A stretch of 64,000 bases of DNA. Origin: a virus. A program made the position numbers and the translations under genes. A model generated the notes under the pieces. It searched no databases, was not told where the DNA came from, and was given only the letters and a program-made list of their open reading frames with translations. Positions 31,535-52,732 of this stretch are shown in pieces; positions within the stretch are counted from its first letter, which is position 1; every line of letters starts with the position of its first letter. The DNA lies in IMG/VR virus record IMGVR_UViG_3300030109_005647, positions 74,596-138,595 of that record, one strand, 5' to 3'.

Positions 31535-31546
31535 TTTAGCTCTCCT

Positions 31547-31789: not shown

Positions 31790-32629
31790 TTATTCTTCAC
31801 TAACTGCGCGACCTTTAAGCTGTTCCCAGTCTTTTTCTGGTCTTACTTCTAAATTTTTATTCCAAACCGATTTTAACACTGCAGGGTTCATACCTGCTGA
31901 TTCAGCAAAACTGATCAAAGCGTTGATATCTTTTGGAAAACACGAGCCTCCAAATCCAAATTTGCCATCAGGACCAGGGGAGCTAAAATGTGTTTTACCT
32001 ATTCTTTGGTCGTAAAGACCATACTCTACTACTTTATCATAGTCTACGTTTATTTTTTCACATACTTGTCTAATTTCATTAGAAAAACTAACCTTTGTAG
32101 CCAGAAAACAATTAGTAAAGTATTTTACCATCTCTGCTGTGTTTGATCCTGTTTTGATTATGGATGCCGTAGGATAACACTTTCTATAAAGATTCTTAAC
32201 TTTTGTAGTTCCAGGTCTTGGACCACCAATTATAACTCTATTTTGATTTTTAAAATCATTAATAAAATTAGCCTCGGTTAAGAACTCTGGATTAAATAAC
32301 ACTTGTAAATTGTTACATTCTTTGTTAAATTTTTCAGTTGTTCCTGGTAAAACTGTAGATTTTATAACTGCAATGTTGTCGTTGCCAAAAGAGTCTAGCT
32401 TGTAAACCGTTTCAGAGACGATAGATAAGTCACAGTCTCCACTTTTTCTCATCGGAGTGGGAAGGCAAACAAAAATAATCTCTGCCCTCTGGCTTAATTG
32501 TTCAAGAGAATCACAGGTTGATTGTTTAAATTTATCATAAGTTTCAATCTGAACAAAGTCCTTAAAGCCTTCTCTTATGGCAGTTCCAACAAAACCTTGT
32601 CCTACCACTCCAATCGTATTATTTTTCAT
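31790..32629 (-). CDS. ugd: UDP-glucose/GDP-mannose 6-dehydrogenase family (short form)
   Basis: GVVGQGFVG, CLPTP, IKSTVLPGTT, FNPEFLTE, AEMVKY..N.FLA.KVSF.NE, GFGGSCFPKD with catalytic Cys. Confidence 0.92.
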   Translation of the reverse strand: MKNNTIGVVGQGFVGTAIREGFKDFVQIETYDKFKQSTCDSLEQLSQRAEIIFVCLPTPMRKSGDCDLSIVSETVYKLDSFGNDNIAVIKSTVLPGTTEKFNKECNNLQVLFNPEFLTEANFINDFKNQNRVIIGGPRPGTTKVKNLYRKCYPTASIIKTGSNTAEMVKYFTNCFLATKVSFSNEIRQVCEKINVDYDKVVEYGLYDQRIGKTHFSSPGPDGKFGFGGSCFPKDINALISFAESAGMNPAVLKSVWNKNLEVRPEKDWEQLKGRAVSEE

Positions 32630-33482
32630 TTTTCAACCTCTCAAAGCACTTATTTATTCCTTCTTTAATTGCAACTGATGTTTGCCAGCCAAGTTGTTTT
32701 ATTTTATCAGTCTTAGCACACGTAAATAAAACATCTCCCTTTCTCTTTCCAACATAATCGAACCTAACACTTGGTAGGTTTTTTTGTACTATTTCTTTAA
32801 TTTCATTTAAAGAAATATTTGTCCCGGTGCCAATGTCGTAATGCTCGCCATTAAAATCACCCTTTCTTGTCATCGCAAAAATGTTTGCACGCACAGCATC
32901 AGAGACATGAAGCATGTCTCTACACTGATCTCCCTCTCCTGTGATATACGGATTTACGCCCTTTCTTATACTGTCCATCCAGTTGGCAATTGCAGTGCAA
33001 TAAGGACCGTCTACAGTCTGATCTTCCGAGTATACATTAAAATATCTAAGAGATACTGTATCTAAATCATATAAATCTGAATATAGTTTGCATTCCATCT
33101 CGGATACTAATTTTTGTAAAGCATAGGGACTCGTAGGTCCATTACCATTACCCACAACAGAAGAAGAGCTAGAATAGATAACCCTTTTTGCTCCAACTTG
33201 TTTAGCAAAATCTAAAACACAGCTTGTGCATAAAACATTATTTTCCATCGTTATAACAGGGTTTTCTACACTATAAGCAACGCGTGGGAAACAAGCTAAA
33301 TGAAAAACATATTCTGGTTTGAAATTATAGTAATGAGGGTGAAATTTATCCTTGAGGTCTTTTTTTATGTCATGACCTTCTACCAGATCGATACCTAATA
33401 CCTCGTGACCCGCTTCTTCTAGCGCTTTAACGAGATGGCTTCCTATGTATCCGCGATGACCAGTAACCAAACATCTACTCAT
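32619..33482 (-). CDS. NAD-dependent nucleotide-sugar epimerase/dehydratase (extended SDR)
   Basis: LVTGHRGYIGSHL, SSSS, YALQK (YxxxK), LRYFNVY, RDMLHVSD. Confidence 0.92.
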   Translation of the reverse strand: MSRCLVTGHRGYIGSHLVKALEEAGHEVLGIDLVEGHDIKKDLKDKFHPHYYNFKPEYVFHLACFPRVAYSVENPVITMENNVLCTSCVLDFAKQVGAKRVIYSSSSSVVGNGNGPTSPYALQKLVSEMECKLYSDLYDLDTVSLRYFNVYSEDQTVDGPYCTAIANWMDSIRKGVNPYITGEGDQCRDMLHVSDAVRANIFAMTRKGDFNGEHYDIGTGTNISLNEIKEIVQKNLPSVRFDYVGKRKGDVLFTCAKTDKIKQLGWQTSVAIKEGINKCFERLKNEK

Positions 33483-33500
33483 TTAACTCTCCGTGTTTCT

Positions 33501-33511
33501 TAAATATTATA
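33501..33511 (-). promoter_or_regulatory. Overlapping TATAAT and TATTTA candidate promoter elements
   Basis: Minus strand reads GTATAATATTTAAG, 18 nt upstream of the epimerase ATG; GGAG SD follows. Confidence 0.45.
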
Positions 33512-33530
33512 CATCATCTCATTTAATAAT

Positions 33531-34355
33531 TTAATTAATTTTAAATTGATGTGGCTTATCCCAAAAACCTTTAGCTTCGACCATTCTCTCTTCTTCGTAC
33601 ACCAGCTTCTTATTCAAAACATACTCTTCAAAATTTATTATTGGATAAACATCTAGCTTTGTTTTTTTAGATGCATTAAAAAATTTAACGCTTTTGTCTT
33701 TTTCTAAAAACTTTTTATATGCAAGAGAATGTATATTTCTCATCTGATTATTTGCTTTGTATACTTTATTTTCTGGTATATCAGCCCTATAAGATTTATC
33801 AAAGTGGTTAGGATCGCTGGTTGAGCCTCTATCTGCCGTCCAGCCTAAATCGGCGCCTACAAAAATAATTTCATTAAAGCCCATATAATAAGATAACTGT
33901 AGTGCTAAACTTATAGTAGTTGCGCTCTTGTCAATCCTGTCAACAACATTGGTTGAAAAGCAGCTTTCTAGAATATTTCCAGATGTATCCGGCTTGTTTT
34001 CTGACATAGAATCAAACCATTTTATTTGTGGATATTTATTTTTAGGATCGATAGTTGGTTTAAAGATTCGTGCTATAAAGGATGTTGTTTTTGGATCAGA
34101 CGCGGACCTTCTTACTGATTCTGTCCAAGCAGAACCCCACACTGGGTTTCTAACATTAGTAGAAGAAAATAAATAATAAGTTGGTTTCCATTTTGGATTC
34201 TTATCATAAATAAGAGAAATTCTATTCATAGCTATTGTTGTTTCATTTTTTAACAAATCTAAATTAGTTTCAGCTAGACTTGGACCATTTGCTATGATAA
34301 AAACCCTCTGTGCAGTGTGCCTGTCTTTAAATTGTTCAAATACTGTATTTTTCAT
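33531..34355 (-). CDS. DUF115 / Maf-like (motility accessory factor / MptE-like) putative CMP-sugar transferase
   Basis: VFIIANGPSL, TIAMNRI, LQLSYYMGFNEIIFVGADL, NHFDKSY motifs. Confidence 0.75.
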   Translation of the reverse strand: MKNTVFEQFKDRHTAQRVFIIANGPSLAETNLDLLKNETTIAMNRISLIYDKNPKWKPTYYLFSSTNVRNPVWGSAWTESVRRSASDPKTTSFIARIFKPTIDPKNKYPQIKWFDSMSENKPDTSGNILESCFSTNVVDRIDKSATTISLALQLSYYMGFNEIIFVGADLGWTADRGSTSDPNHFDKSYRADIPENKVYKANNQMRNIHSLAYKKFLEKDKSVKFFNASKKTKLDVYPIINFEEYVLNKKLVYEEERMVEAKGFWDKPHQFKIN

Positions 34356-34356
34356 T

Positions 34357-35052
34357 TTAACTTTCCTCTGTGAACAACATTACTGTTCTTTTATAGTTTA
34401 AACCACTTTTTCTATCCTCATAAGTGTGATAACCGTTTATCCCATTTTTTTTCATTCTATCGATTACATACTTTTTTGTTGGCGTATAATGCAATCCGTT
34501 CCACTCATTAGATTTAGAATTGCCACCATGGTATTTGTATGTTGATTCTTCACTATCTAAAGTTTTAAATTCTAATATTATGTTTTTGCCTATTGCAGCT
34601 AGCTTATCTAAACAAGCATCCATATTTGGTACACGATGTATTAAACCCAAACCAAGAACTATATCAAATTTATTCTTTTCGTCTAATTTGTATAAGTCAA
34701 ACACTTCAAATTTAGTGTTTTCAAGACCATAAACATCTTTAGCAAAATTTGCTCTTTCTATTCTTGTATGATCGGGGTCGATGCCGTAAACCTTTGACAT
34801 TTCTTTTTTCGCTGACATTATAGAAAAATATCCGTCACTGCATCCTACATCAATCATTGTCTTTCCTTTTGGAGATAGGCTTTCTACAATTGGATCTAAT
34901 CTTTTCCATTTGTTTGTATTGAACCCAGGGCTGTTCACTTTATTGCTGACGGTTTTTATTCCCCCTGGAAACTCGTATAAATGATTCCAAGATTTTTCTA
35001 ATTTAAATTTTTTTACTTTTTCTTTTATTTCTTCCTTTGTGTATTTAGACAT
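34357..35052 (-). CDS. Class I SAM-dependent methyltransferase (DUF1698/CmoB-like)
   Basis: MIDVGCSDGYFS motif I, VYGIDP, FDIVLGLGLIHR. Confidence 0.85.
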   Translation of the reverse strand: MSKYTKEEIKEKVKKFKLEKSWNHLYEFPGGIKTVSNKVNSPGFNTNKWKRLDPIVESLSPKGKTMIDVGCSDGYFSIMSAKKEMSKVYGIDPDHTRIERANFAKDVYGLENTKFEVFDLYKLDEKNKFDIVLGLGLIHRVPNMDACLDKLAAIGKNIILEFKTLDSEESTYKYHGGNSKSNEWNGLHYTPTKKYVIDRMKKNGINGYHTYEDRKSGLNYKRTVMLFTEES

Positions 35053-35758
35053 TTAAATAAACCTCCATAATTTTTTGTGCCTCGGCAGATGTTAGAAATC
35101 CACTTCTGACGGACGCCCAAGACGATGCATCTTTACTATCGTATACTTCCAAAAAGTCACTCTTTTCTCTACCTTGTAACTCTCTTGGTTTTGCAAATTT
35201 TACGCTCTCATAAGATACAGGTAACTCTTGATCTGGAAACAAAGCAAAGAACACAGAAGTGCGATGATTACCACTAACAATATAAAATTTTTTTAAATTA
35301 TTTTTTTTAATAAAGTATCCAGTGATATTTCCTTGTTTGCGATCAGGAAATTGTTTTGGACTATATCCGTTTTCTCTAAAAGAATCAATTAGTTGCTTTA
35401 TCTTTAAAACTTGTTTATAAACAAAATCTTCTGTTTCAAAGCTTATAAACGCAATATCAGTCATTGTTTTTAAGGGTTTTTTGTAAATCCAAGGTAAAAA
35501 TGGATTAGTCACTGTATAATTTTTCAGTTTATCAACCGCATTGTATAAACTATAAATTGAATCTGGAGAATATGAAATGTAATGTTTATACAGTGGGCTT
35601 TCCTTGTAATAAGAAGCGGCATTAAACTTAGTTTCTGCGCTCTCCATATCGATAATTTGTTTTGCTGTTCTATAACAGGGGTTTTTTTCAACACCGATCG
35701 GTATTCTACTTAAATTACAAACATCGGATTTTTTTATTTTAATTAATTGACTATTCAT
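35045..35758 (-). CDS. Hypothetical protein with ParB/Srx-like motif
   Basis: LIDSFRENGY...YIVSGNHR resembles the ParB/Srx L..SI...G...IxDGxHR core. Confidence 0.5.
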   Translation of the reverse strand: MNSQLIKIKKSDVCNLSRIPIGVEKNPCYRTAKQIIDMESAETKFNAASYYKESPLYKHYISYSPDSIYSLYNAVDKLKNYTVTNPFLPWIYKKPLKTMTDIAFISFETEDFVYKQVLKIKQLIDSFRENGYSPKQFPDRKQGNITGYFIKKNNLKKFYIVSGNHRTSVFFALFPDQELPVSYESVKFAKPRELQGREKSDFLEVYDSKDASSWASVRSGFLTSAEAQKIMEVYLNV

Positions 35759-35762
35759 TTTT

Positions 35763-36827
35763 TTATTTTAGATAACTACTAAGCTTGTCATTTCTTTTTA
35801 TAGAAATTGCGGCGCAAGATGGATATGGATTAGTGGCAGCAAAATCATTAATTATAATCCTCTTACTATGATTACAATTAGAAATAATTGTCTTGTATGT
35901 TATACCTTTTTCTTTTAAGTATTCTTTAACCACGCTTAAGTATTTTTCTGGTCGAGCCGTCATAAATATAATTTCGTTTCCTGTATCTGACAAGCGTTTT
36001 AAGATTTCAACATTTTCTTCTATAGGTTTGAAGTAGTTGGACCAGTTCCTAGAGCCATATTTGCCACAATTTTCCAGTATAACACCGTCTATATCAAAAA
36101 CATATGTATTATGTTTTTCCATTTCTTTGTACCACTCATTTGCAGTTCCCCAATCTACATAACGATCAGCTTCAACATATTCAAAAATATGAGAATTACA
36201 AATTATCAAATAAGATATGACATGGCTGACGTATATTTCATTTTCATGCTTATATACATCACTGGAACATATATTTTCATATGCTCGAACAAAATCTATT
36301 GAGTCAACACAATATACACCCAAGCAAATTATGTTAGATACCATCTCTTTTTCTAGAATATCAACAATAACATCATCATCGTTTTTAATGATAAAACTCT
36401 TTTGTTGCAATCTATCCACCTGTACATTGTGATCTATAGTTAAACCTACAATGTGATCTTTTTCTGGTAGGTAATTTATTTCGACTACGCAGTCAGAGTC
36501 TTTTATTGTTAGCTGTCCAGATAGATTTGCCTGCTGAATGGTCTTATAAACCGTTTCAGCAGAGCAAGTGGTAGGCTTTTCTAGTATTATAATCTCAACC
36601 GTATCCCCAAAAGCCTGATTTAGAATAATATCTGCTTCATAAACATCACAGTGTTCTCTCAAAACCGTAATTATTGTTTTCTCATATCTTTGATAATTCG
36701 AAGAGGTCAAAACCTTTTCAATCATTAAATGTCCAGATGGATGTGTAAGCAACCATTTTGGTTTCATGTTGGGATACCTGCTTGACTTACCAGCGGCAGG
36801 AATAAGTAGGGTTTTTTGTTTTAACAT
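35763..36827 (-). CDS. Sugar nucleotidyltransferase-like + HAD phosphatase fusion (BcbE/BcbF-like)
   Basis: LIPAAGKSSRYP..KPKWLL, DSD, DWGT; C-terminal VFDIDGV, FMTAR, IIIND; likely start MLKQ at 36827. Confidence 0.8.
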   Translation of the reverse strand: MLKQKTLLIPAAGKSSRYPNMKPKWLLTHPSGHLMIEKVLTSSNYQRYEKTIITVLREHCDVYEADIILNQAFGDTVEIIILEKPTTCSAETVYKTIQQANLSGQLTIKDSDCVVEINYLPEKDHIVGLTIDHNVQVDRLQQKSFIIKNDDDVIVDILEKEMVSNIICLGVYCVDSIDFVRAYENICSSDVYKHENEIYVSHVISYLIICNSHIFEYVEADRYVDWGTANEWYKEMEKHNTYVFDIDGVILENCGKYGSRNWSNYFKPIEENVEILKRLSDTGNEIIFMTARPEKYLSVVKEYLKEKGITYKTIISNCNHSKRIIINDFAATNPYPSCAAISIKRNDKLSSYLK

Positions 36828-36828
36828 T

Positions 36829-37626
36829 TTATGGTATACCAAATATCTTACCAAGATATTGTAATCTATTTTGTAAGTATTTTAAAGTTGTTCCATTTGA
36901 ATATGGAATAATTCTAAGTAGATTTAAGACTAAAAGTCTTTTTGAAGCTTCAATCTCTTCAAAGGACATTTCTTGTAGCATCTTGTCATACAAATGTATT
37001 GTCTTTATTAAAGGCTTGTCCATGTTATGACGCCATGACCAATCTAAGACGACATCTTGCATTATTTTTGAATAGTCAACATACTTTGTCTGTATAAAAG
37101 AGTCAAGAAAATCAATGAAATATATTTTATTTCTATAGATTAATATATTTTCAAAAGTAAGATCGCCATGATTTTGCGATACCGGCGTTTTTGACCAGTC
37201 ATGCTCTTTACAATAACTATAATATTTATTTGTATAAGAGGGTAGTCGAGAAGTTAATGAACTTAACTTCTTGTTTATTAGGGGTGTTATATCTTTAGTG
37301 TTGTCAACTTTTTCTTGTAGATACTTGTAGATTTTATCAAAAATAGGCATTATGTTATTTATGCTGCTCAAGGATACATAGTTGTGCATCGGTGCGCCGC
37401 GAATAAATTCCATATCGAAATAAAAAAGATTGTTAGTATAGCCTGATTTGTAAACAATTGGCGTGTGGAAATCACTATGATTAAACGATTGTTGCTTTTC
37501 CATCTGTTTGAATAAACGAGAATTGTATTCCTGAGAGGAAGATACTTTTCGAATAAACTTTTTTCCGGCTTCCTCTTGAAGATAAATGTGGCATCCAGAG
37601 TGCCCGTTCATTTTTTTTATTATCAT
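36829..37626 (-). CDS. APH/choline-kinase-like phosphotransferase (sugar kinase)
   Basis: GHSGC, IRK, FDMEFI, HGDLTFENIL, YFIDF motifs. Confidence 0.85.
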   Translation of the reverse strand: MIIKKMNGHSGCHIYLQEEAGKKFIRKVSSSQEYNSRLFKQMEKQQSFNHSDFHTPIVYKSGYTNNLFYFDMEFIRGAPMHNYVSLSSINNIMPIFDKIYKYLQEKVDNTKDITPLINKKLSSLTSRLPSYTNKYYSYCKEHDWSKTPVSQNHGDLTFENILIYRNKIYFIDFLDSFIQTKYVDYSKIMQDVVLDWSWRHNMDKPLIKTIHLYDKMLQEMSFEEIEASKRLLVLNLLRIIPYSNGTTLKYLQNRLQYLGKIFGIP

Positions 37627-37643
37627 CTGTGCCTTGTTTGATG

Positions 37644-38573
37644 CTATCTTCCTTGCGGTCTGTCATAATTAAGATAATTCAACGAATTTAGATCTAAATC
37701 TTTTTCAAAATATAGGTACCTTATTGCTGTTTTAACTTTTGATTTCTTAATATCAGGAGGATGGTTTACAATTTCATTACTCCAGTTTTTAATCCAGCCC
37801 TGCTTTTCAGAGGTATGAATAGGATCTCCGTGTTTCCAAGTGCCTTTCCATTTGTTATAGAAATAGTTCCAAGCAGTTTTTTTATATATACCACCTCTAC
37901 TGTTATGCCATATTTTTTGTTGTTCTGCGTCATCGGGCTTTCTTTTTATGATGCTTTCACCCTTTTGTTCTACTGTAACAAAATTACGATCCTCAAAAGA
38001 CTCAATCGGATAATCTGGCTCATGGTTTAATTTAATGCCATGGACTATATCGTTAATAGAAGATTTCTCTTTATTAAAGATCAACGCTCTCAAAAAATAG
38101 TCTGTCTCTTTGTATTGTGCAGGTAAGTTTTCATCCCACATGCCAATTTTTTTGATTGCCTCTGGTCTGTAAGCAGTGACCGTATCTCCACATAGCCCTG
38201 TGACAAAACTATAACCTTTTTTATTAAAAAGTGCATCTAGATTCGAACAAAAATTTGGGTGGACCACGGCATCATTTTGTAGTGTCACTAGTATCTCTGT
38301 ATCTGGATTTTTTAAGTCCACAATGCCATTAATAAAAGCTTGATTATAATTCTCAGATACGTTTCCATTTGACCAATCAGGTCTTAGTACGTTATGAAGA
38401 ACGTTAACTTTTTCTTTAAACTCTGGGTCTAGGTTAAATTCAGAGTGATTGTTTATGATATTAACTTCTGTATTTTTTACAGTTGAAAAGTCAGATTTAA
38501 ACAATTTACGCAGCGTATCATTGAGCACTTCACATCTTTTGTATGTAACAATATAAACTTTTATTTTTTTCAT
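37644..38573 (-). CDS. GT-A fold glycosyltransferase (GT2-like)
   Basis: VYIVTYKR, IINN, LQND, IKKIGMWDEN, ETDYFLR. Confidence 0.75.
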   Translation of the reverse strand: MKKIKVYIVTYKRCEVLNDTLRKLFKSDFSTVKNTEVNIINNHSEFNLDPEFKEKVNVLHNVLRPDWSNGNVSENYNQAFINGIVDLKNPDTEILVTLQNDAVVHPNFCSNLDALFNKKGYSFVTGLCGDTVTAYRPEAIKKIGMWDENLPAQYKETDYFLRALIFNKEKSSINDIVHGIKLNHEPDYPIESFEDRNFVTVEQKGESIIKRKPDDAEQQKIWHNSRGGIYKKTAWNYFYNKWKGTWKHGDPIHTSEKQGWIKNWSNEIVNHPPDIKKSKVKTAIRYLYFEKDLDLNSLNYLNYDRPQGR

Positions 38574-39547
38574 AAAATATTACTATCTTTTAGTTGTTCC
38601 AAACAGCCACTCCAGTCAGAGAAACGAAAAGCTTTGTCGTCAATATAAGCCACCGCTCTAGGCTTTTCAGCAGTAACTTTTGCGACATATTTTGATGCAT
38701 TATGTTTTTCTAGCCACTCCCATATCATTTGCGTTCCAGTTTTTCCATTTACCAAGCCGCGATCAGATTTCGCTTTGCAGGTATAAATAATAACATTATA
38801 TTTTTCAGCCAATGTTGCTAACGCCTCTATCGCTCCGTCAACCGGTGAATCATAAATTGTTCCATCATAATAACCCTTTGAGCATTGGTGGACCACTCCA
38901 TCAAAATCGACACCAATATTTACTTGCTCATCAGGATACGAGTATTCCCTGATTTTAGATCTCCAATGTTTAGCGTTTTTAATATCATCTGGAGAATTTT
39001 TGCCGATAGGAGGGCACACGTTTCCAGATCCATGGGTGAGTTCATATGTCAGCAAAAGAGTTAGCACTTCTGAGGTATGATAATATTCTGCGCCTAAGAT
39101 GACCTGTGTTAAGTTTGGGATCTGTATTTTGATAGGTCTGCTAGTGATCATTGCTATATGCATATTGTTATCACCAGCCCACTGTAGGGCTTTAATAATG
39201 TCAGTTGAGCTTCCAGAAGAAGAAACACCCAAAACCAAAGATTTTTTCATTTGAGTTTTAGTTTTTGTAGTGGTTCTTGCTCTGAGCCAGTCAACCATCC
39301 ACTGTTCAAAACTCGTATCATTAATTAAAGAAGTTGCGACGATAGCAGAGCCAGGGCAAATTGCGTTTTTTGTGCCATTTGACAATCTAGTCATATCTAC
39401 TGCTGCGTGATCCGCAATGGCTAAATTACCGCCATGTCCTAATACATATATATCATTAGACGAATTGAATTTTTTTTGAAGCTCAGTCCAATCGCCTGAA
39501 TTAACGACTTGTACAAATTTTTCTCCAATATTCTCAAAATCAAGCAT
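38570..39547 (-). CDS. SIS sugar-phosphate isomerase (GmhA-like) + HAD phosphatase fusion
   Basis: YVLGHGGN..IADH.A.D, LIND, GVSSSGSS.DIIKAL; C-terminal IGVDFDGV, YIDDKA. Confidence 0.85.
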   Translation of the reverse strand: MLDFENIGEKFVQVVNSGDWTELQKKFNSSNDIYVLGHGGNLAIADHAAVDMTRLSNGTKNAICPGSAIVATSLINDTSFEQWMVDWLRARTTTKTKTQMKKSLVLGVSSSGSSTDIIKALQWAGDNNMHIAMITSRPIKIQIPNLTQVILGAEYYHTSEVLTLLLTYELTHGSGNVCPPIGKNSPDDIKNAKHWRSKIREYSYPDEQVNIGVDFDGVVHQCSKGYYDGTIYDSPVDGAIEALATLAEKYNVIIYTCKAKSDRGLVNGKTGTQMIWEWLEKHNASKYVAKVTAEKPRAVAYIDDKAFRFSDWSGCLEQLKDSNIL

Positions 39548-40220
39548 GTTGTATTTCCTTGTATGTTTCTATTAAAGCTATGGTGTCCATACCCATAGCA
39601 ATTATACCATAACCGGTATACTTTTTAATTTGTTTTTTAACATCTTTTGGTATGTGAACAGCCATTTTTTCTATTGGAATTTGCTTTTTTATCTTTTCTA
39701 CTGCCGACATATATTTGGGATTATCAAAATCCGCAGGACAGCCTAAACTAGCTGAGAGGTCGTAAGGACCAATCATATAGTAATCAAAGCCAGTTATGTC
39801 TTTAATGTTTTTTACGCCGAGCGAAGTTTCTATCTGGGCAATCAATATTGGAGATTCAGAAACAATATCCTTGTTTAGACCCCATCTATTTTGTCTCACC
39901 AAACCCAAGCCTCTTAAACCTCCATATTTTGGGTATTTACACAAACTATGGATCTCTTCAACTTCAGATTTTTGTTCGACTGTGGAAAATATTATACCTG
40001 ATGCTCCTGCGTCCAAACAATATTTTGCCATGAACTTATCTTGTTTACCAAGCCTAACGAAACATTTTTTATTATTTGAAGTTATAACCTGTATACAGCT
40101 ATACAAGGTTTCTTTATTATAACAAGCATGTTCAGTGTCTAGAACAACGCCATCTAGATCATTTTGACAAAGAATATCGGATATAATTGTGGAGGGTATC
40201 TGCTGCCAAGCTAATTTCAT
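39540..40220 (-). CDS. HpcH/HpaI class II pyruvate aldolase
   Basis: VLDTEH, FVRL, LDAGASGI, KYP..G.RG, AQIET..GV.NI, IGPYDLSASLG; likely start MKLAW at 40220 (ATGA overlap). Confidence 0.9.
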   Translation of the reverse strand: MKLAWQQIPSTIISDILCQNDLDGVVLDTEHACYNKETLYSCIQVITSNNKKCFVRLGKQDKFMAKYCLDAGASGIIFSTVEQKSEVEEIHSLCKYPKYGGLRGLGLVRQNRWGLNKDIVSESPILIAQIETSLGVKNIKDITGFDYYMIGPYDLSASLGCPADFDNPKYMSAVEKIKKQIPIEKMAVHIPKDVKKQIKKYTGYGIIAMGMDTIALIETYKEIQHA

Positions 40221-40870: not shown

Positions 40871-41631
40871 TTAACAGCCTCTTTAAATAAGCTCTTATCT
40901 AGATCTTTTAAGTTTAATATTTTTTCTAAAGTGCCATCTAGTTTTACAATTGGATGATCAATTAAGGTCTCTTTAGCGTGTTTCCACATATTTTTTTGAT
41001 TGTGTCTTTTTGAAGAAAAAGCCATGTGTGCAAACTCATCTTCCGTAACTTTTTTTTCTTTTTCTATTCCTGACTTACACCCAGGTATAAAACCGTCGAG
41101 ATAAAAACTAAATCCATATATGGACAAAGATTTTGGTTTAAAGCTAAGTAGGTCATATATTGCTAAGTAACCAGTATTTGGTCTGCTTTTTACTTTCTTA
41201 GCAAGTTTTGTATGAAAGTCATGTGATACGATTCTTACAGGCATAACTGATTGTATCTTTTTTACTGTTTTTTTATTCACCATGTAATGAAATTTTGTTT
41301 TCTTGGAAACACCAGAATAAGACGACTCTGGAGGAGCCACCAAAAAATCAACGCCATATTCATTTTTTAATTCGCTTGCATTTATTTTTCCTGCGTTCTG
41401 CGCTGTTTCAATCAAGCAAGAATATAGAATATCACACTTAACACCTATGTCATTGGGGTATTGTCTGGTTGTTTCTATACTCCTATTGATTCTAACGACT
41501 AAATCATTTTTATCAATCTCATCGCCTAAATTTTTACCCATCATATATTTGGCAGGACCAACAATAGCTATATTCTTATCGCGAACAAGCTCACTGAATT
41601 TAAAATTATTATCTTCGTTTGATATTTTCAT
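40867..41631 (-). CDS. GT29-like (sialyltransferase-type) glycosyltransferase
   Basis: Sialylmotif-L-like IAIVGPA...LGDEIDKNDLVVRIN...DIG.K; motif-S-like PNTGYLAI.DL...LSIYGFSF; late His. Confidence 0.78.
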   Translation of the reverse strand: MKISNEDNNFKFSELVRDKNIAIVGPAKYMMGKNLGDEIDKNDLVVRINRSIETTRQYPNDIGVKCDILYSCLIETAQNAGKINASELKNEYGVDFLVAPPESSYSGVSKKTKFHYMVNKKTVKKIQSVMPVRIVSHDFHTKLAKKVKSRPNTGYLAIYDLLSFKPKSLSIYGFSFYLDGFIPGCKSGIEKEKKVTEDEFAHMAFSSKRHNQKNMWKHAKETLIDHPIVKLDGTLEKILNLKDLDKSLFKEAVN

Positions 41632-42205
41632 TTTTTTTAAAAATTCCAATTTTGTTTTCTACCAATTGTCCAGAAATTAAATTTTCTTTGCCAAAGAAAT
41701 GGTATGCGTATTTACTCTCAATATGTCTACCCATATCATCCATAACACATATGCCACCATCTTTTAATAAATTCCAAGCAGCAAAAATACTTTTCATCCT
41801 ACCAGGACCCTTATAAGGTCTTGGTGGGTTATGACCTAACGGTCCATCTACGAATATCATGTCCCAGTTTTCTGATTTAATGCTTTTTGGTAATGCCATT
41901 TTTAATTTTCTTAAATCAAATCCTATTTTCTCATGGTCTTTTGCCTCTGTGTTGTATTTTACAGTATGTATCTCCAATCCAGATCCGTTGAATTTTGAGA
42001 TCCACTCCTCATCATCTTCTAGGAAAGCTGTACGACCACCCTCATTTATCTTTTGCCAAACAAATGCGTCGTGTCCTAATCCAAAAACTAAAAAGTTACA
42101 GGGAGATAATAAATTTAACTCTTTTGCGACAGCTAAGTACTGATTTGTCGACATCAAACCATAACCTTTTATCTTCATCTGCTTAATTAATTGATTATAA
42201 CTCAT
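41609..42205 (-). CDS. DUF579 polysaccharide O-methyltransferase (plant GXM/IRX15-like)
   Basis: SPCNFLVFGLGHD..W..IN.GGRT.FLEDD..W and LP......WD.I.VDGP.G...PGRM.SIF.A, closely matching recalled plant glucuronoxylan methyltransferase motifs. Confidence 0.8.
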   Translation of the reverse strand: MSYNQLIKQMKIKGYGLMSTNQYLAVAKELNLLSPCNFLVFGLGHDAFVWQKINEGGRTAFLEDDEEWISKFNGSGLEIHTVKYNTEAKDHEKIGFDLRKLKMALPKSIKSENWDMIFVDGPLGHNPPRPYKGPGRMKSIFAAWNLLKDGGICVMDDMGRHIESKYAYHFFGKENLISGQLVENKIGIFKKNENIKRR

Positions 42206-42207
42206 TG

Positions 42208-42951
42208 TTAATATTCCATAAAATTCTTTTTTACTACTTCTAAGGCTTGTTCTAGCGTTTGTATTTCATAAGTACCCTGGTTGATTCTAGTGTCTGCGTG
42301 CATATGATATATTCTAGGGGTTAGGTGCTCTTCGCCAAAAGTGTGATGAAACTTTCTTTGCTTTTCTCTGTTTGCCTTACTTCTAATGTTATATTCTACA
42401 GGAAAAACATAAAATTGAAGACCGTTTTGTATAGCCTCCCACAGTGATACTCTAAAGGATGGTTGATCCCATGGACAATGTTGATAATATTTGTAAAAAT
42501 TTTCTCTCCATTTTTTAAACAAAGTGGTGACTTTATCGCTTTTATTAAACACCATAACACCAGTATTTACCTCAGAAAAAGAATAAGGAATGTCTCCATA
42601 CTCTGGTATGGCTTCTGAATACTTTTTTCTTTTCCTAGCTAGATCATGAGTAGCCGCAAGATCAAAGTTGTCTAATAAATCATACATATCTTCTATATTA
42701 TAATCAATAATCGTATCTGTATCCAGGAACAGTGTTTTTTCATATGGTGACATTATAATATAATCAATTTTAGGTCTAAGATGTTTTGCTCTTATTAAAA
42801 CACACTTATCTACATATTCAGAATCGACTGGTTTATCTACAAATGCCGTAATATGTAACTCTGGATTGTGTTTTTTTACAGATTCTGCAGATATCAACAT
42901 TTCTTTTAAAAAATTTTCTCCAAAAGCAATATACAATACGCCTCTTTTCAT
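42208..42951 (-). CDS. GT-A nucleotide-diphospho-sugar transferase (GT8/GT77-like)
   Basis: SPYEKTLFLDTDT (DxD), NTGVMVF, WDQPSFR, PVEYN, IYH. Confidence 0.82.
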   Translation of the reverse strand: MKRGVLYIAFGENFLKEMLISAESVKKHNPELHITAFVDKPVDSEYVDKCVLIRAKHLRPKIDYIIMSPYEKTLFLDTDTIIDYNIEDMYDLLDNFDLAATHDLARKRKKYSEAIPEYGDIPYSFSEVNTGVMVFNKSDKVTTLFKKWRENFYKYYQHCPWDQPSFRVSLWEAIQNGLQFYVFPVEYNIRSKANREKQRKFHHTFGEEHLTPRIYHMHADTRINQGTYEIQTLEQALEVVKKNFMEY

Positions 42952-43946: not shown

Positions 43947-43950
43947 GATT

Positions 43951-44841
43951 TTATTTTTTAATAAACTCTTTGTATTTATTTGATACTTCTTTCATATCAT
44001 AACTCACTTCATGTATATTTTTAATTTTTTTATCAAAACTAAGGACTGGTGGTTTGTATAATTCAACAGGCTTAAAATCCCAATCTTTTTCCTGTATTAC
44101 AATGGCATCCAAACCAGCTATTTCTTTTGTGCCGCCGGCGGAAGAGCAGATAATTTGGCATCCACTAGCCCTTGCATCAACAACAACATTAGGGCAGTGA
44201 TCAAGCCAAGCTAAATGCAGAAAATATTTTGATCTCTTGTATAAAGAAATTAAGTTAGGTACGGATATCTCTCCAACATAAAATATTCTTTCACTTTTTT
44301 GTATTTTTTTATCTGATTTTCCTGCGATTACTAGGCAATCTTTTTCAGAGGAGTGTTCTAAAAAATATCTAATATTGTCGTCTAATCTTTTATGTGGACG
44401 CCATGATGCGGCGCAAGACCAAACATTTTCGAATTTATCTATTTTTGGATGACTCAGAGGTGTAACAGTTTCAATAAAATCTGTGTCAGCGCCATTGTGG
44501 ATTACAGCAGAATATTCATGCTCTCCGAAATATTCTGTTGTTAGCTTTTTATTAAAATTAGATTGAAATATAACACCGGTGGAATGGTGATATGTTTTTT
44601 CAATATTTTGATTTTGTATTTTATACGGTTGAGATAAATTAAAGTATATCCCATCTAATCTCTGAAAAAGAGGAATTTTGCTTTGAAAATCTCTTGTTTC
44701 TATAAAGCATAGTCTAGCATCGGCGGTAGAGGTTTTGTTAAATGTGACACCATTTTTTTTGCCATATTTAACTAATTTTGATGCGAAATGGTTAGGTCCC
44801 GAAGCGCTTTGAAGGTTTACGTTTTCTAGTTGTATATTCAT
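43951..44841 (-). CDS. GT4-like glycosyltransferase
   Basis: SGP..F, QRLDG, IFQS.F, VIHNGAD, HKRL, DHCPNVVVDARASG..IICSSAGGTKEI. Confidence 0.85.
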   Translation of the reverse strand: MNIQLENVNLQSASGPNHFASKLVKYGKKNGVTFNKTSTADARLCFIETRDFQSKIPLFQRLDGIYFNLSQPYKIQNQNIEKTYHHSTGVIFQSNFNKKLTTEYFGEHEYSAVIHNGADTDFIETVTPLSHPKIDKFENVWSCAASWRPHKRLDDNIRYFLEHSSEKDCLVIAGKSDKKIQKSERIFYVGEISVPNLISLYKRSKYFLHLAWLDHCPNVVVDARASGCQIICSSAGGTKEIAGLDAIVIQEKDWDFKPVELYKPPVLSFDKKIKNIHEVSYDMKEVSNKYKEFIKK

Positions 44842-46457
44842 ATTCTTTTATATGGAGTTTTACTCCTGATTTTGTCTGCCAATTCAGATTGTTTTTTTGC
44901 CTTAATCTTATCTACACTTAAGGGGTTTTGTCTATTGTAAACATAAAGCGCTTCTGGTATATATCGTGATCTCTCTGCAGACATCTCTAATAGTGGCAAC
45001 ATTATAGCTTGATCATAAGTCATTTCGAAATATTTACCGCTCTCTTTAAGATCTTTTTGATCTAACTTTTCCCACAGGCAATATTTAAAAGTTCTAAGAT
45101 GTGATGCTCGCCAACTGTCTTTTCTAAACGAATTATTTTTGATAATCTCCTCTGGGTATTCAGAAGGCTCTACGCCTCTTTGACCGGTTGGGTTATATAT
45201 ATAACTTCCATAAGTTAATAGTGTATCTGTCGTGTATTCATCACTTAACCTAGATAAAACCGCCGTAGATGATAACCAATCATCGCCATCCATCAATATT
45301 ACGATATCCTGTTTTTTTATACTCTTCTCATTTAAGATGTAAGCAATGTTTCCCAAAGCATACTTTTTTTCTTTATTTTGTATTAATTCAAATCGGGTAT
45401 CATCTCTTATCATTTGCTTGATTATATCTGAGGAGTTATCAGTCGACATATCATCAACCAAATAACACTTAAAATTAGTATAACTTTGACGCCTAATACT
45501 GTTTATACATTTGTCAATCCACTTTTCACAATTATAAAAAGGAACAACAAAAATAAATTTATCATTTTCAATATGTGTTTCCTTTGGCTCCGGTAAAGAT
45601 AAATTTTCAAATGCTAATTTTTCTATTTGTGTCCAGAATATTTCTGTTCGTTTTCTCAAATAATATAAAGTGTTTTCTCTTGTTTGGAACCAAGGCTCGT
45701 CTTTGTGTTGAACATTTTCATTTAAAATCAACTCACAGTCCAATAATTTGGCTTCTATTGTCATCCTTGGGCAAGTATCACCAGCATTTGGAAAAAATAT
45801 AATTCCTTTGGAATTTGCTAGCTTTTGTAAAAGTTCCTTATGACTCAAACCCCAAACCAATTCATACTCTAAGTTATTCTCTTCAGCATATGCTTTGGAT
45901 TCGCTTACGCCTTTAATCCAAGAAGGTGAATTTAAAATTAAATATTTATTATTTTTGTTTTTTGTATCTAGAGAACAAATGTAATCCAATGTTTCATTTG
46001 AAAAAACAGAGCTTAAGACTTGACTCCTATCGTTATCTAAAAATGGAAATTTATTTCTATAATGATCAAATTGATTTCTAGACATCCACCAAGCCATCTT
46101 TGCATTGTTTAAAAATATTGAGGTTATTTTTCCTTGACTTGTTAATTCGCAATTACAAGTTTCACCCTCTAATATGTGTTTACCTGGGGATCTATATTTA
46201 CAATATTTATAATCATACTCCAGAACAGAGTAATTTAAATTTTTAGCAGCAAATAAAAGGACTTGTTGCGATGCGTTGGCAAAATTGCCAAAAATCCAAA
46301 AAGCTTTGGTATTTTTTTTCATTAATGAAATTAAGCGTGGATCTGAGGACAGCACCTTATTGCAAGGAAAATAAGATGCTTTAATCAATGCTTCAGTTGT
46401 TAACTCGGCGCCTCCCTCATAATGTTCAACAAATAAATCGGATACAAAAAAAATCAT
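44838..46457 (-). CDS. Bifunctional glycosyltransferase (GT-B N-terminal + GT2 C-terminal)
   Basis: GGAELT, WIKG, DTCPRMTIEAKL (GT-B); VVPFYNCEKWI..CINSI..Q.Y, VDDMSTDNS, MDGDDWL (GT2). Confidence 0.85.
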   Translation of the reverse strand: MIFFVSDLFVEHYEGGAELTTEALIKASYFPCNKVLSSDPRLISLMKKNTKAFWIFGNFANASQQVLLFAAKNLNYSVLEYDYKYCKYRSPGKHILEGETCNCELTSQGKITSIFLNNAKMAWWMSRNQFDHYRNKFPFLDNDRSQVLSSVFSNETLDYICSLDTKNKNNKYLILNSPSWIKGVSESKAYAEENNLEYELVWGLSHKELLQKLANSKGIIFFPNAGDTCPRMTIEAKLLDCELILNENVQHKDEPWFQTRENTLYYLRKRTEIFWTQIEKLAFENLSLPEPKETHIENDKFIFVVPFYNCEKWIDKCINSIRRQSYTNFKCYLVDDMSTDNSSDIIKQMIRDDTRFELIQNKEKKYALGNIAYILNEKSIKKQDIVILMDGDDWLSSTAVLSRLSDEYTTDTLLTYGSYIYNPTGQRGVEPSEYPEEIIKNNSFRKDSWRASHLRTFKYCLWEKLDQKDLKESGKYFEMTYDQAIMLPLLEMSAERSRYIPEALYVYNRQNPLSVDKIKAKKQSELADKIRSKTPYKRI

Positions 46458-47737
46458 GCGTAGTTTGAAATTTTAGAGAATAGATCATCTATTTCTTCAT
46501 CTGAAATACTTTCGACAAAATACTCATCAATAATTTCTTTAAATTTATTAATTTGTTTTTCACTATTAAATTCTTCTAGAATCCAATCTTGAAGTTTTTT
46601 TGCTTGAGATTTAAATCGTCCATAATCTTTATAAACTTCTCTTAGCTTTATTTTACAAGAACCCTGCTGTGGATATGCCCACATAGAGTCTTTCTGTATC
46701 ACTCCATCCCAAACAGCGTCTGGGGGGACCGGCTGAAGGTCATAATCAATTCTAGCAAAATGAGGTTTGTTTTTCTCTCTACCTTTTTTATCTTTTGTCG
46801 GTTTATAGAGAAAATCCAAGTGACCAGACCAATCTGTTGCTAAAACAGGTAATCCACAATATGCAGCCTCAAAAAGTGGTAGACCAAACCCCTCTCCGTG
46901 TGTTAAGCTTATTAACGCATTAATGCTCTTGTGAGAATACAAACAATGCATCTCTTCATCTGTTAGATCACCGTGAAGAAGATAAACTTTACATTCTCTA
47001 TCTTTATACTGTGGTCTAGAAAGAAGTTTTTCTAATTCTTGAGTTACTGCATTTTTATCTAATATACTGCCGCCTCTAACAAATGTTTTAACAACTAGTC
47101 CGACCTCTGGATTGTCTATAAATTCTTCAACAAACCACTTCACCGTCGAGCCTAAATTTTTGCGTGGACCCCACTGTGCGACTGTAAGAAAATTAAATTT
47201 AGTGTTTAAATCTAGATCAAGATCTGAAGTTAAATTATTTAGAATATCTTCTTTTACCGGGTAATGAACAATATCAACTTTTTTAGCACATTTTAATATT
47301 AAAGGTTGATTTGTATTTCTGTCTATTGCCTCGTATATAGTATTTACTAAACCAGCTTTTGAATGCTGAGATATGGTGACTACTCTATCCATCTCATTGC
47401 ACTTTTGTAACCATATCGGTGCTACTTTTGTTGTTTCAATGCCCGCTGTAACTCCAATGTTGATGGGAGCCATTTTTTGCCACTCATTTGGAATTGTAAC
47501 CTGCACGGACATATCATATTGCCCTCTTTCTTGGCTATATAATGCTGTCTTTTTAATAATTTTATCCATCCAGTCTCTTTCTTCTGAATTTTCCCATATC
47601 CAAGAAGATTTGCCCCAGTTAACCGGGAGCAAATAGATGTCTAGACCTTTAATTTCCCTAAGAACGCGCAACACAAAACGACAATGTTCGCCGTATCCAG
47701 TTCGTGTTAATGCTGGTCCTCTTACTAGAACTTTCAT
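46454..47737 (-). CDS. GT4 glycosyltransferase
   Basis: TGYGEHCR, PRKN, THGEGFGLPLFEAAY.GLPV.AT.WSGHLDF; start MKVL at 47737 after GGAGG. Confidence 0.9.
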   Translation of the reverse strand: MKVLVRGPALTRTGYGEHCRFVLRVLREIKGLDIYLLPVNWGKSSWIWENSEERDWMDKIIKKTALYSQERGQYDMSVQVTIPNEWQKMAPINIGVTAGIETTKVAPIWLQKCNEMDRVVTISQHSKAGLVNTIYEAIDRNTNQPLILKCAKKVDIVHYPVKEDILNNLTSDLDLDLNTKFNFLTVAQWGPRKNLGSTVKWFVEEFIDNPEVGLVVKTFVRGGSILDKNAVTQELEKLLSRPQYKDRECKVYLLHGDLTDEEMHCLYSHKSINALISLTHGEGFGLPLFEAAYCGLPVLATDWSGHLDFLYKPTKDKKGREKNKPHFARIDYDLQPVPPDAVWDGVIQKDSMWAYPQQGSCKIKLREVYKDYGRFKSQAKKLQDWILEEFNSEKQINKFKEIIDEYFVESISDEEIDDLFSKISNYA

Positions 47738-49005
47738 TAGGCTACCTCCTTGATGGTCCAACGTTTTGAGTATTTTCTAGTCGACCAAGAGCCTTTCTCT
47801 TCATGTAATTTAGTCATTACATCAACCCAAGTTTTTTTAAAGTTTTCAAAATTATAATTTTCCATAACGTGGGCGCGACCAAGAAGACCGATTTGCTTTC
47901 TCTCTTCTTCAGAAAGGTTGTAAATTTTTTCCATCGCGGCGACCACATCATCACCATTAAGTCGATCCTCATATATCCAAGGAATTTGTTGAGATCCGAT
48001 AACAGCCCTGGATGATGGGTAAAGAGCTACTCCAAATTCTTTTTCATCAGCTTTAATTTGTTCTTGGAGACCTCCTGTCATATTAACAATGATAGGAGTG
48101 CCACAGGAAAGCGATTCTAAAGTTGCCAATCCAAAACCTTCAGCATCAGAGATGTTCACCGTGCAGTCAGATATATTGTACATAAAAGATAATCTCTTTA
48201 AATCAACTTTTTGCTGACTGAACAGGATTTGACCCTCAGTTAGATTTAAATGTTCTATTATGGCTTGCAGATCTTGACCATTCGGGTCTTTTACATCAGT
48301 ATGCATAACTAAACATGCTTTATCGTGACCAACTTTATCTAGAAATTCCTTAAACCAAAAAATTAAAGAACCAGATTGTTTTCGTCGCGCATTTCGATTA
48401 TTCCAAAAGAAAACAAATTTATTGGGATCATAATATTCCCCAAATACTTGTTTTTTAAACTCTTCCAGTTCTTCTTGATTATCAACAGGAGCAAAAATTT
48501 CACTATTAACCGCATGTGGGATGTATTGAGATTCTACACTTGGTGCTACAGTTTTAACAATATCATCTGTCACTTTTGAAATTGTTGCGATAAAATCATT
48601 CGACTCGTAAAGTTGTTTATTATAAGTGGGATAAGGATAATTATCCCAAACATGGTAATAAACCATAGGCATAAGAGGACGGATTTCATTTTCCATTTCC
48701 CACAACCAGCCCCAAAAACGGGGATCAGTCATAAACCAAATAATGTCTGGCTTTTCTTGTCTAATAATCGAGCGGACCATCTCCTGATTGCCGTATCCAT
48801 CAACAGGGAACATAAGCCAATCGTCTCCGTATTGTTCAGTCTTGATTGGGTCATAGTTTGGGTGTTTGATTGCGCCACCAAAAGAACGAATTTGGAACTT
48901 ACCAGTTTTTAATAACGCTTCACAAATATACCTAGTTTGAGTTCCAACGCCACTAGGACTAAGAGGCATATCACTAAGAGTGAAGACCTTAATTTTTTTA
49001 TCCAT
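47737..49005 (-). CDS. GT4 glycosyltransferase
   Basis: SD.P..PSGVG, YIPHAV, NRNARRK, SDAEGFGLATLESLSCGTPII...TGGLQEQ. Confidence 0.9.
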   Translation of the reverse strand: MDKKIKVFTLSDMPLSPSGVGTQTRYICEALLKTGKFQIRSFGGAIKHPNYDPIKTEQYGDDWLMFPVDGYGNQEMVRSIIRQEKPDIIWFMTDPRFWGWLWEMENEIRPLMPMVYYHVWDNYPYPTYNKQLYESNDFIATISKVTDDIVKTVAPSVESQYIPHAVNSEIFAPVDNQEELEEFKKQVFGEYYDPNKFVFFWNNRNARRKQSGSLIFWFKEFLDKVGHDKACLVMHTDVKDPNGQDLQAIIEHLNLTEGQILFSQQKVDLKRLSFMYNISDCTVNISDAEGFGLATLESLSCGTPIIVNMTGGLQEQIKADEKEFGVALYPSSRAVIGSQQIPWIYEDRLNGDDVVAAMEKIYNLSEEERKQIGLLGRAHVMENYNFENFKKTWVDVMTKLHEEKGSWSTRKYSKRWTIKEVA

Positions 49006-52552: not shown

Positions 52553-52732
52553 GTTAACTCACTTTGTTAAACACTTGATCTTCTTCATCAAAACACCCAC
52601 TTTCAATAAGTATAATCTGAAAAAGCAGTCATTATAAATAGTCTTTTTGTTTATAAAAAAGGAAAAAGCGGTGCGGCGCCCTTATTTATTTATATGAGAG
52701 TAAAAATCTCAGAGACATGGGAGGATAAAAAA
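52553..52732. promoter_or_regulatory. Divergent promoter region between phoH and the protease gene
   Basis: ACTATTTA on the minus strand (52635-52642); CTTATTTA on the plus strand (52681-52688); only divergent junction in the window. Confidence 0.5.

Follow-up and report, generated by a model that had tools for sequence, protein, structure and literature searches.

A hypervariable glycan-assembly island at a fixed site in marine myophage genomes: a candidate virion glycosylation system

Variable regions rich in glycosyltransferases (GTs) are already in print for marine myophages. In the available parts of two reports, they lie next to the tail genes of pelagimyophages, as a 'host recognition cluster', and of the cyanomyophages P-SSM2, S-SCSM1 and S-SCSM2R, and are read as modifying the host O-chain or the DNA, without experiments (PMC7029224, PMC12801897). 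Going by these parts, only guesses (host O-chain or DNA) have so far been offered for the role of the many GTs of marine phages, and the supplementary tables of both reports may list comparable clusters. Here, a stretch of viral DNA (the window) was analysed that forms the last 64 kb of the 138,595-base virus record IMGVR_UViG_3300030109_005647, rated 78% complete. At positions 31790-49005, profile searches found genes for nucleotide-sugar synthesis and several GTs together in one block. As far as the available text of those reports goes, the block resembles the published clusters in being a variable region by the tail and baseplate genes of a marine myophage, with GTs and nucleotide-sugar genes including a uridine diphosphate (UDP)-glucose dehydrogenase and genes of the Kdo (3-deoxy-D-manno-octulosonate) pathway. 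In contrast to them, it belongs to a lineage with a DnaE-type polymerase and with RM378, Immuto and Mel-JY01 as nearest capsids, and it is compact, operon-like and at a fixed site, anchored by a trio of GT-B domains, without interspersed fibre genes and without a KdsA or NeuB synthase.

In the mycobacteriophages Che8, Corndog and Myrna, it is reportedly established that phage-encoded soluble GTs modify capsid and tail-tube subunits in the cytoplasm. The block likewise encodes soluble phage GTs without membrane machinery, glycosylation being deduced here from the genes. Mycobacteriophage systems have few GTs, whereas nine GT genes and three predicted activated-sugar routes are present in this phage. 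Giant viruses encode sugar-nucleotide synthesis, soluble GTs and methyltransferases with clade-specific content, as in chlorovirus capsid glycans and mimivirus fibril clusters, but they are viruses of eukaryotes. The GT4 enzyme of chlorovirus NY-2A (3oy2) ties as the best structure for GT4a, the first gene of the block (Z 33.4, 20% identity); this match shows fold and not kinship, because it is no better than that to a cellular GT4 enzyme, sucrose-phosphate synthase (Z 34.0). With bacterial O-antigen and capsule loci, the block shares nucleotide-sugar genes and many GTs in one co-directional block and extreme strain variability at a fixed site. It differs in having no priming transferase, Wzx, Wzy, ABC transporter or ligase, and in that its conserved part consists of transferases instead of export genes. 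Features new here are a fixed site, a conserved GT-B trio, a lack of membrane components throughout the clade, an extension to cultured phages with hosts of two phyla and a putative aldolase-based route to a cytidine monophosphate (CMP)-activated acid.

Across the clade there is a hypervariable island of 9-25 kb, of which the block is one allele; the island is located between the conserved GT-B trio and the late sigma gene. This layout was seen in more than 130 marine virus contigs; the locus searches covered the best 80 of 150 confirmed loci with GT4a as seed and the best 80 of 131 with the sigma factor as seed. The gene order common to the related loci is PhoH, o222, a PD-(D/E)XK nuclease, GT4a, GT4b, the variable stretch, o77, a zinc-ribbon open reading frame (ORF), o96 and sigma55. 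The nuclease stands directly before GT4a in 80 loci, o77 was found in 75 and the sigma factor in 85, and the 82-aa ORF of the downstream flank is the zinc ribbon (Zn_ribbon_8). From GT4a to the sigma gene, the distance is 16.7 kb in the window and 9.0-23.2 kb in 20 contigs found by both searches (calculated by hand). In five further sigma-seeded records it is 12.8-24.6 kb, with GT4a present in 5/5 at 56-62% identity. The original prediction had proposed looking for a conserved GT4 pair flanking a variable core: both the pair and the variable core were found, but the pair does not flank, standing together with a third GT-B domain at one end.

Variation between these fixed ends is extreme. The nearest backbone relative (L039/L086) is 96% identical in sigma, 95% in PhoH and 85% in GT4a, and shares none of the 16 genes downstream of the gene that joins the third GT-B domain to a GT2 domain; in that gene it has just the GT-B part, at 27%. 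A more distant phage (L047/L048/L050; GT4a 66%) shares a seven-gene module, from the small GT4 gene through the aldolase, at 58-72%. From 136 loci, 1214 island ORFs were collected, 1042 of them unique, which fell into 394 clusters with 244 singletons; the biggest is an epimerase family with 120 proteins from 70 loci. A census was made on representatives of the 150 largest clusters, and the 25 commonest of its 140 families are all glycan enzymes. They include GT2, epimerases, GT1/GT4, FkbM methyltransferases, PseB-like dehydratases, formyltransferases, radical SAM, GT10, GNAT, DegT aminotransferases, UDP-GlcNAc 2-epimerase and RmlC. In public data, the GT4a family makes up at least 7571 sequence clusters, of which many come from ocean surveys and sit on phage-sized contigs, and the island is therefore common in the sea.

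The conserved trio consists of GT4a, GT4b and X280, the latter being residues 1-295 of a 539-aa protein. GT4a is 60-85% identical in the best 80 of the 150 loci, and its EX7E motif is invariant in 49 sequences. GT4b was found in 75-80 loci, with an invariant EGFG...E motif in 39 sequences. A pairing of an active with an inactive enzyme, as in GtfA/GtfB, was rejected because the EX7E motif is kept in both GT4a and GT4b. Among the 69 loci with enough sequence, 54 have a homologue of X280 directly after GT4b, as a gene of its own or fused to other domains. The AlphaFold2 model of GT4a (predicted local distance difference test score, pLDDT, 88.6) gave tied best matches at Z 33-34, namely sucrose-phosphate synthase, the chlorovirus enzyme, MshA and BshA, and this points to a soft preference of the modelled fold for enzymes with soluble acceptors. 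For X280 (pLDDT 94.5), the best match to GT4 enzymes has a Z of 21.4 (root-mean-square deviation 2.8, 266 residues aligned). The GT4a family is acidic, with a median isoelectric point (pI) of 5.39 (range 4.85-6.81, n=49) and a net charge of -11.8 for GT4a, as compared to a median pI of 8.9 for 18 lipid-acceptor GTs of E. coli. Both genes occur adjacently, at 31-36% identity, in the cultured Flavobacterium phage Immuto and Microcystis phage Mel-JY01 (GT4b 33% and 31%, respectively). In these phages the pair comes after a PD-(D/E)XK nuclease, directly or one gene away, and is followed by a 6-9 kb run of GTs, aminotransferases and methyltransferases. A literature search found nothing about glycans for Immutovirus and nothing on Mel-JY01. 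In about a third of the relatives, GT4b is 655-705 aa long instead of about 430 (e.g., L021:10192-12180 and L083:11251-13344), mostly in loci without a separate X280; the extra part may therefore be a fused, diverged X280.

The block had been described as export-free, a claim that holds well beyond the block: no flippase, priming transferase or export-type polytopic protein was found in the block, the contig, the 1042 island proteins or four complete relatives. Membrane spans were predicted with a crude Kyte-Doolittle scan for hydrophobic segments of 19 residues, which in E. coli controls gave 5-11 segments in WaaL, two Wzx, two Wzy and WcaJ, and 0-1 in 18 peripheral GTs. None of the 19 block proteins has a predicted span, and no island protein of the relatives has three or more segments (two segments in two proteins, one in 40). 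The 138.6 kb contig encodes a single multi-span protein, of 796 aa and probably the tape measure. Export or priming genes elsewhere in the genome, which would have spoken for a host-surface pathway, were sought with whole-genome profile searches of five records, i.e. the contig and four complete relatives of 186-191 kb. The priming transferases PF02397 (Bac_transf) and PF00953 (Glycos_transf_4) were absent from 5/5, while their controls matched in 10/14 and 12/14 genomes, and the Wzx flippase PF01943 was likewise absent, with a positive control. By hydrophobicity, no Gtr-type polytopic membrane protein is present in the block, contig or island proteins, the Gtr families not having been searched by name. 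In the complete relative G001, scanned in full for ORFs and hydrophobicity, two proteins are polytopic, one tape-measure-like and the other a PAP2 phosphatase. This phosphatase (206 aa and five spans in G001, Pfam 8.8e-16, with a weak likeness to PgpB) is no exporter, and in G001 some 48 kb separate its gene from the island; it was not found in the incomplete contig. It may recycle undecaprenyl pyrophosphate or alter lipid A. Among the findings it is the only one that would fit glycan assembly on a membrane lipid carrier, and the absence of membrane export components is clade-wide.

Based on the ORF table, the block contains 19 minus-strand ORFs of 198-539 aa, one more than the 18 genes counted originally, with ends exactly at 31790 and 49005 (Table 1). 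The tight packing was confirmed, as 11 of the 18 junctions overlap and the biggest gap is 48 nt (by hand from the ORF coordinates). All 19 ORFs are indeed co-oriented, but this is not special to the block, since 140 of the 144 ORFs in the record share the strand. Families were assigned with the Pfam and NCBIfam curated cut-offs, complemented by PHROGs, PDB, feature and structure searches. Profile searches and GT-B fold matches recovered the nine expected GT genes with ten GT domains, one gene with a weak match, and both methyltransferases (Methyltransf_31 and the plant IRX15/GXM family). Downstream, as had been stated, the same strand carries the gene for the gp55-like late sigma factor and the gp25/gp6-like baseplate genes. 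For the donor-synthesis genes, the Ugd-like, SDR, aldolase and CMP-synthetase assignments passed their cut-offs, but the kinase, SIS, HAD and nucleotidyltransferase (NTase) parts matched only weakly. For the SIS-HAD protein, the GmhA model scored 30 bits against a cut-off of 209; its PDB match 5i01 is a phosphoheptose isomerase, and DFDGV and IDDK motifs are present. The presumed sugar kinase is not of the GHMP or RfaE type and has no homologue among 160 related loci. The possible GT-A transferase has a single homologue (46%, in relative L116) and an empty PHROG search. The nearest feature clusters of the 332-aa GT-B protein are 94-100% viral, and the DUF115/MptE-like transferase also matches the Kdo transferase WaaZ weakly (25 bits). 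An SGNHRT stretch in the 237-aa protein may resemble a ParB/sulfiredoxin-fold motif. The short Ugd-like dehydrogenase has no C-terminal domain; a truncated pseudogene was ruled out, because G001 and 23 related loci have the same 279-285-aa form. For the NTase-HAD, SIS-HAD and 539-aa proteins, single-sequence searches of the PDB returned already known domains only. No weight was given to the Pfam matches 'GT4-conflict' and 'TCAD9', which are partial or below cut-off and are covered by stronger generic matches.

Three routes to activated sugars may be read from these assignments. The short dehydrogenase and the SDR protein would make a uronic-acid-type UDP-sugar, which the GXM-like methyltransferase would O-methylate; together with the GT8-like transferase, these genes point to a uronic acid that is methylated. 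A nucleoside diphosphate (NDP)-sugar would come from the kinase and the NTase-HAD protein. Compared to the NDP-heptose pathway (GmhA, kinase, GmhB, NTase), only the 30-bit SIS match recalls GmhA, and the HAD and NTase parts were recognized by motifs and the feature search. The SIS-HAD protein, pyruvate aldolase and cytidylyltransferase would yield a CMP-activated 2-keto-3-deoxy (Kdo-like) acid, to be transferred by the GT29-like and DUF115-like enzymes. The three genes co-occur in the relatives L017, L116 and L164 and parallel KdsD, KdsC and KdsB of the Kdo pathway (KdsD-KdsA-KdsC-KdsB-WaaA). An isomerase (SIS), a HAD phosphatase, a CMP-synthetase and CMP-acid transferases each occur in some form in the block. 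Unlike that pathway, the block has a class II pyruvate aldolase, which would take the place of the usual phosphoenolpyruvate (PEP)-dependent synthase, and its transferases are GT29-like and DUF115-like, not GT30. No Pfam or NCBIfam match to a PEP-dependent KdsA/NeuB-type synthase was obtained among the 19 proteins (E up to 0.01), and a literature search on HpcH aldolases with cytidylyltransferases in polysaccharide synthesis found nothing relevant. A further search on phage GTs and nonulosonic acids in virions gave reviews only.

A candidate phage promoter motif, ACTAYTTAT, precedes PhoH at the head of a gap-poor gene string that runs into the island. It is strand-biased, with 18 minus-strand and 2 plus-strand copies in the contig and 237 and 21 in the relatives, and differs from the TTGACA-N17-TATAAT sites of early genes. 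Copies lie 11-95 nt before the tail tube, adaptor and gp25-like genes; further examples in the window are at 21647, 59891 and 60950 on the minus strand. The motif is found within 250 nt before PhoH in 48 of 73 loci and is eight-fold depleted in the islands of the relatives (0.016 against 0.128 per kb). As it heads the PhoH string and is depleted inside islands, the island looks like the interior of a long transcription unit that would start before PhoH and run into sigma55. Scans of the block for sigma-70 promoters and terminators gave counts not above shuffles (95 against 83±10 and 13 against 9.6±3.7, respectively).

The preferred reading, with a probability of about 0.42, is that the acceptor is virion proteins, modified by a hypervariable cytoplasmic glycan-assembly island at a fixed site in an abundant marine myophage lineage. 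A glycan would be started by the conserved trio on virion proteins produced in the same cell, taken as the conserved acceptor that the phage itself encodes, and then lengthened by the variable island enzymes, resulting in particles with a strain-specific acidic, methylated glycan coat. More tentative is the wider proposition that oceanic myophages coat their own particles with strain-specific acidic glycans from such a cytoplasmic trio-anchored island, including a new aldolase route to CMP-Kdo-like acids. A phage-intrinsic, non-lipid acceptor is favoured indirectly by the GT4 pair across host phyla, the acidic GT4a and nearest folds that mostly belong to enzymes with soluble acceptors. With the pair kept in phages whose hosts belong to different phyla, a phage-borne or universal acceptor is simpler than the lipid-linked intermediate of one host. 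The nearest capsid relatives include the same phages Immuto and Mel-JY01 as well as RM378. Counted on this side, also indirectly, is the gene string in which the island lies, since the motif at its head is found before tail tube, adaptor and baseplate genes as well. Several observations weigh against virion proteins. Ser/Thr-rich acceptor-like tracts were sought in the virion proteins and none was convincing. The motif also stands before non-structural genes (PhoH and an adenylosuccinate-synthetase-like gene), so a 'late' timing of its class is not established, and the gene string includes, further downstream, the late sigma gene itself. The GT4a model still scores high against lipid-acceptor folds (PimA/PimB' Z 30.7-30.8, WaaG 28.8, PglA 28.3), and X280 matches all kinds of GT4 enzymes at Z 18-21. 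Since all kinds match, fold neighbours were set aside as an uninformative guide to the acceptor. Six of the nine GT proteins of this phage are basic (pI 8.65-9.37), like lipid-acceptor enzymes, and the contig is 78% complete.

The original prediction had moved from the missing export genes to virion proteins, a step that the present results do not establish; soluble GTs can use host undecaprenyl-linked intermediates and host export. Remodelling of the host envelope is a close competitor, only somewhat less probable than virion proteins. Here, soluble phage enzymes would build or rebuild a glycan on the host undecaprenyl-phosphate primer or the lipopolysaccharide (LPS) core, and a host flippase, ABC transporter or ligase would export it. 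The surface would change during the latent period, e.g., to block superinfection or to keep progeny from sticking to debris, and the island would vary with host glycotypes. Peripheral GTs of lipid-linked pathways are spanless too, as the 18 E. coli controls illustrate, and the six basic GTs agree with such a role. The PAP2 lipid phosphatase, present in 4/4 complete relatives, would suit an undecaprenyl-phosphate pathway and slightly favours this explanation over virion proteins, but its gene is far from the island in G001. The implied sugars (a uronic acid, a Kdo-like acid and possibly a heptose-type route) recall the LPS core, as does the weak WaaZ likeness. It is also the published interpretation of the pelagimyophage and cyanomyophage GT clusters in the available parts of those reports (PMC7029224, PMC12801897), the former reading comparable pelagimyophage islands as host O-chain modification. 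Against it stand the lack of any priming transferase, flippase, polymerase, ligase or Gtr-type membrane protein in the five records or 1042 island proteins, the strong acidity of GT4a, and a GT4a/GT4b pair common to phages of Bacteroidota and Cyanobacteria, hosts with differing envelopes. Moreover, two island proteins searched in the protein atlas had mainly viral nearest clusters.

Another soluble acceptor is unlikely. The trio would then glycosylate a small molecule, a polysaccharide primer in the cytoplasm, or a protein either of the host or, if non-structural, of the phage, with a product that stays intracellular or is released by lysis. The best structural ties of GT4a do make small-molecule glycosides (sucrose phosphate and the precursors of mycothiol and bacillithiol), but strain-level hypervariability (394 clusters for 1042 proteins) is a typical trait of surface-exposed glycans and is difficult to account for in an internal metabolite, and we know of no precedent. 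Least probable by far is DNA hypermodification, in which the GT-B enzymes would glycosylate modified phage bases in the style of T4 hydroxymethylcytosine while the adjoining PD-(D/E)XK nuclease attacks unmodified DNA. The nuclease directly before GT4a in the related loci and in Immuto, T4 alpha-glucosyltransferase among the distant fold matches of X280 (rank 29) and the nearby adenylosuccinate-synthetase-like gene with a PurZ-type PHROG name would fit such a role. In contrast, ThyA-type hydroxymethylase (PF00303), C5 DNA methylase (PF00145) and DpdA were all absent from the five records with positive controls; Tet/JBP (PF12851) gave 0/5 as well, but with a silent control. In addition, GT4a is acidic, and 9-10 transferase domains, CMP-acid synthesis and O-methylation far exceed the short glycans known on DNA.

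The acceptor question is now testable, because the site is fixed, the trio is conserved and two cultured phages carry the same pair. Should virions be the target, a glycan coat could influence how abundant ocean viruses adsorb, which hosts they infect, how sticky the particles are and how many are lost to grazing, and the islands would be a large untapped source of soluble GTs. Tailed phages would then have a counterpart of giant-virus glycosylation, with diversity like that of O-antigens. With the host surface as target, it would mean serotype conversion by lytic phages without any membrane component.

Table 1. Features of the island, its flanks and related elements (positions in the window unless a related locus is named; GT, glycosyltransferase; SAM, S-adenosylmethionine; TM, template modelling score)
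Feature	Position	Strand	Evidence or remark
Candidate phage promoter motif ACTATTTAT	52634..52642	-	89 nt before PhoH, head of gap-poor gene string running into the island
Upstream flank: PD-(D/E)XK exonuclease	49013..49813	-	PF12705 66.8 bits
GT4a, first island gene, retaining-type GT-B	47737..49005	-	Glycos_transf_1 49.5 bits
GT4b, second conserved GT-B	46454..47761	-	Glycos_transf_1 31.9 bits
Two-domain transferase (539 aa): X280 GT-B (residues 1-295) and GT2 (303-432)	44838..46457	-	GT2 68.6 bits
Small GT4-type glycosyltransferase, 296 aa	43951..44841	-	Glycos_transf_1 32.5 bits; homologues in 13 loci
GT-B fold glycosyltransferase, 332 aa	42948..43946	-	Atlas structure TM 0.75-0.80 to GT1/GT4 clusters; no Pfam/NCBIfam match
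GT8-like / nucleotide-diphospho-sugar transferase	42208..42951	-	PF03407 Nucleotid_trans 26.2 bits, above cut-off; PF01501 23.5 bits, just below
DUF579 / glucuronoxylan-methyltransferase-like O-methyltransferase	41609..42205	-	PF21729 IRX15/IRX15L/GXM 106.1 bits
GT29-like (sialyltransferase-type) transferase	40867..41649	-	PF00777 35.1 bits, cut-off 23
CMP-sugar synthetase (cytidylyltransferase)	40217..40870	-	PF02348 CTP_transf_3 56.7 bits; PseF model 74.5 bits, below cut-off
Class II pyruvate aldolase, HpcH/HpaI family	39540..40250	-	PF03328 70.3 bits; HpaI, GarL, YfaU models 73-92 bits, below equivalog cut-offs
SIS (GmhA-like) isomerase with C-terminal HAD-like part	38570..39547	-	SIS 19.7 bits, below gathering score; PDB 5i01 5.7e-5
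Possible GT-A transferase (weak)	37644..38573	-	GT2 16.5 bits, below cut-off 23.3
APH/Bud32-like protein-kinase-fold kinase, presumed sugar kinase	36829..37626	-	Sub-threshold profile matches; HGDLTFEN (HGDxxxxN) and IDF motifs
NTase-like N-terminal domain with HAD-like phosphatase	35763..36854	-	Feature search 0.96 to NTP_transferase clusters (lead); HAD 21-26 bits, below cut-offs; FDIDGV
237-aa protein	35045..35758	-	No Pfam, NCBIfam or PHROG match
Class I SAM methyltransferase	34357..35052	-	Methyltransf_31 56.7 bits
DUF115/MptE-like (Maf-type) transferase, sialyltransferase-like	33531..34355	-	PF01973 37.7 bits, cut-off 34.6; phrog_4603 'alpha-2,3-sialyltransferase' 2e-7
SDR nucleotide-sugar epimerase/dehydratase	32619..33482	-	PF01370 152 bits
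Short NDP-sugar dehydrogenase (Ugd-like), 279 aa	31790..32629	-	TIGR03026 196.6 bits; N-terminal and central domains only; GxGxxG, GGSCFPKD
Downstream flank: three small ORFs (77, 82, 96 aa) and gp55-like late sigma factor	30320..31780	-	phrog_234 5.7e-8
PAP2 phosphatase in complete relatives	L180:1456-2076 (G001), L181:1351-1974, L182:1393-2082, L183:1357-2013		

PHROG matches identify a contractile-tailed phage, with a tail sheath, tail tube, portal, large terminase and gp23-type major head protein. Further matches were obtained for gp6- and gp25-like baseplate wedge proteins, the gp55-like late sigma factor, PhoH, GroEL and a DnaE-type polymerase. The nearest named phages by capsid (32-48% identity) are an uncultured 484 kb phage, Rhodothermus phage RM378, Flavobacterium phage Immuto and Microcystis phage Mel-JY01, and a search of a phage collection for near-identical DNA gave no match. 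The whole record has 10 N bases, none of them inside the window, and its GC content is 0.31-0.36 across the block as compared to 0.36-0.40 in the structural genes at 8-20 kb. Strong GGAGG-type ribosome-binding sites are found at many genes, and TTGACA-N17-TATAAT sigma-70-type promoters lie before early genes outside the window; these signals suggest a host other than Bacteroidota, unlike that of Immuto, and of a different kind from the hosts of both cultured relatives.

Other genes of the window, all on the minus strand, deserve mention. The backbone protein o222 (222 aa, 50244-50912), found in 76 loci, has no family match but carries a HELAH (HExxH) motif and may be a metallopeptidase. Between the sigma factor and the baseplate genes, a 758-aa protein (27759-30035) has an N-acetylmuramidase domain and a weak GDSL/SGNH esterase match (21.3 bits, below cut-off), and may be a tail lysozyme with a glycan-deacylating part. 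Amid the baseplate genes are very large ORFs at 8047-17568 (3173 aa), 21663-26756 (1697 aa), 3562-6984 (1140 aa) and 262-3399 (1045 aa), only 23-34% identical to their counterparts in G001 and, for the latter two, without a PHROG match. These ORFs, probably fibres or extensions of the baseplate, are candidates for glycan acceptors. The adenylosuccinate-synthetase-like gene (59906-60916) encodes only 336 aa, the Pfam profile having 416 positions (1e-81), and its best PHROG is phrog_1211, with a PurZ-type name; it could indicate either a 2-aminoadenine genome or an ordinary PurA. Finally, a 622-aa protein (60959-62827) contains MopE-type metal-binding repeats and a weak VWA domain.

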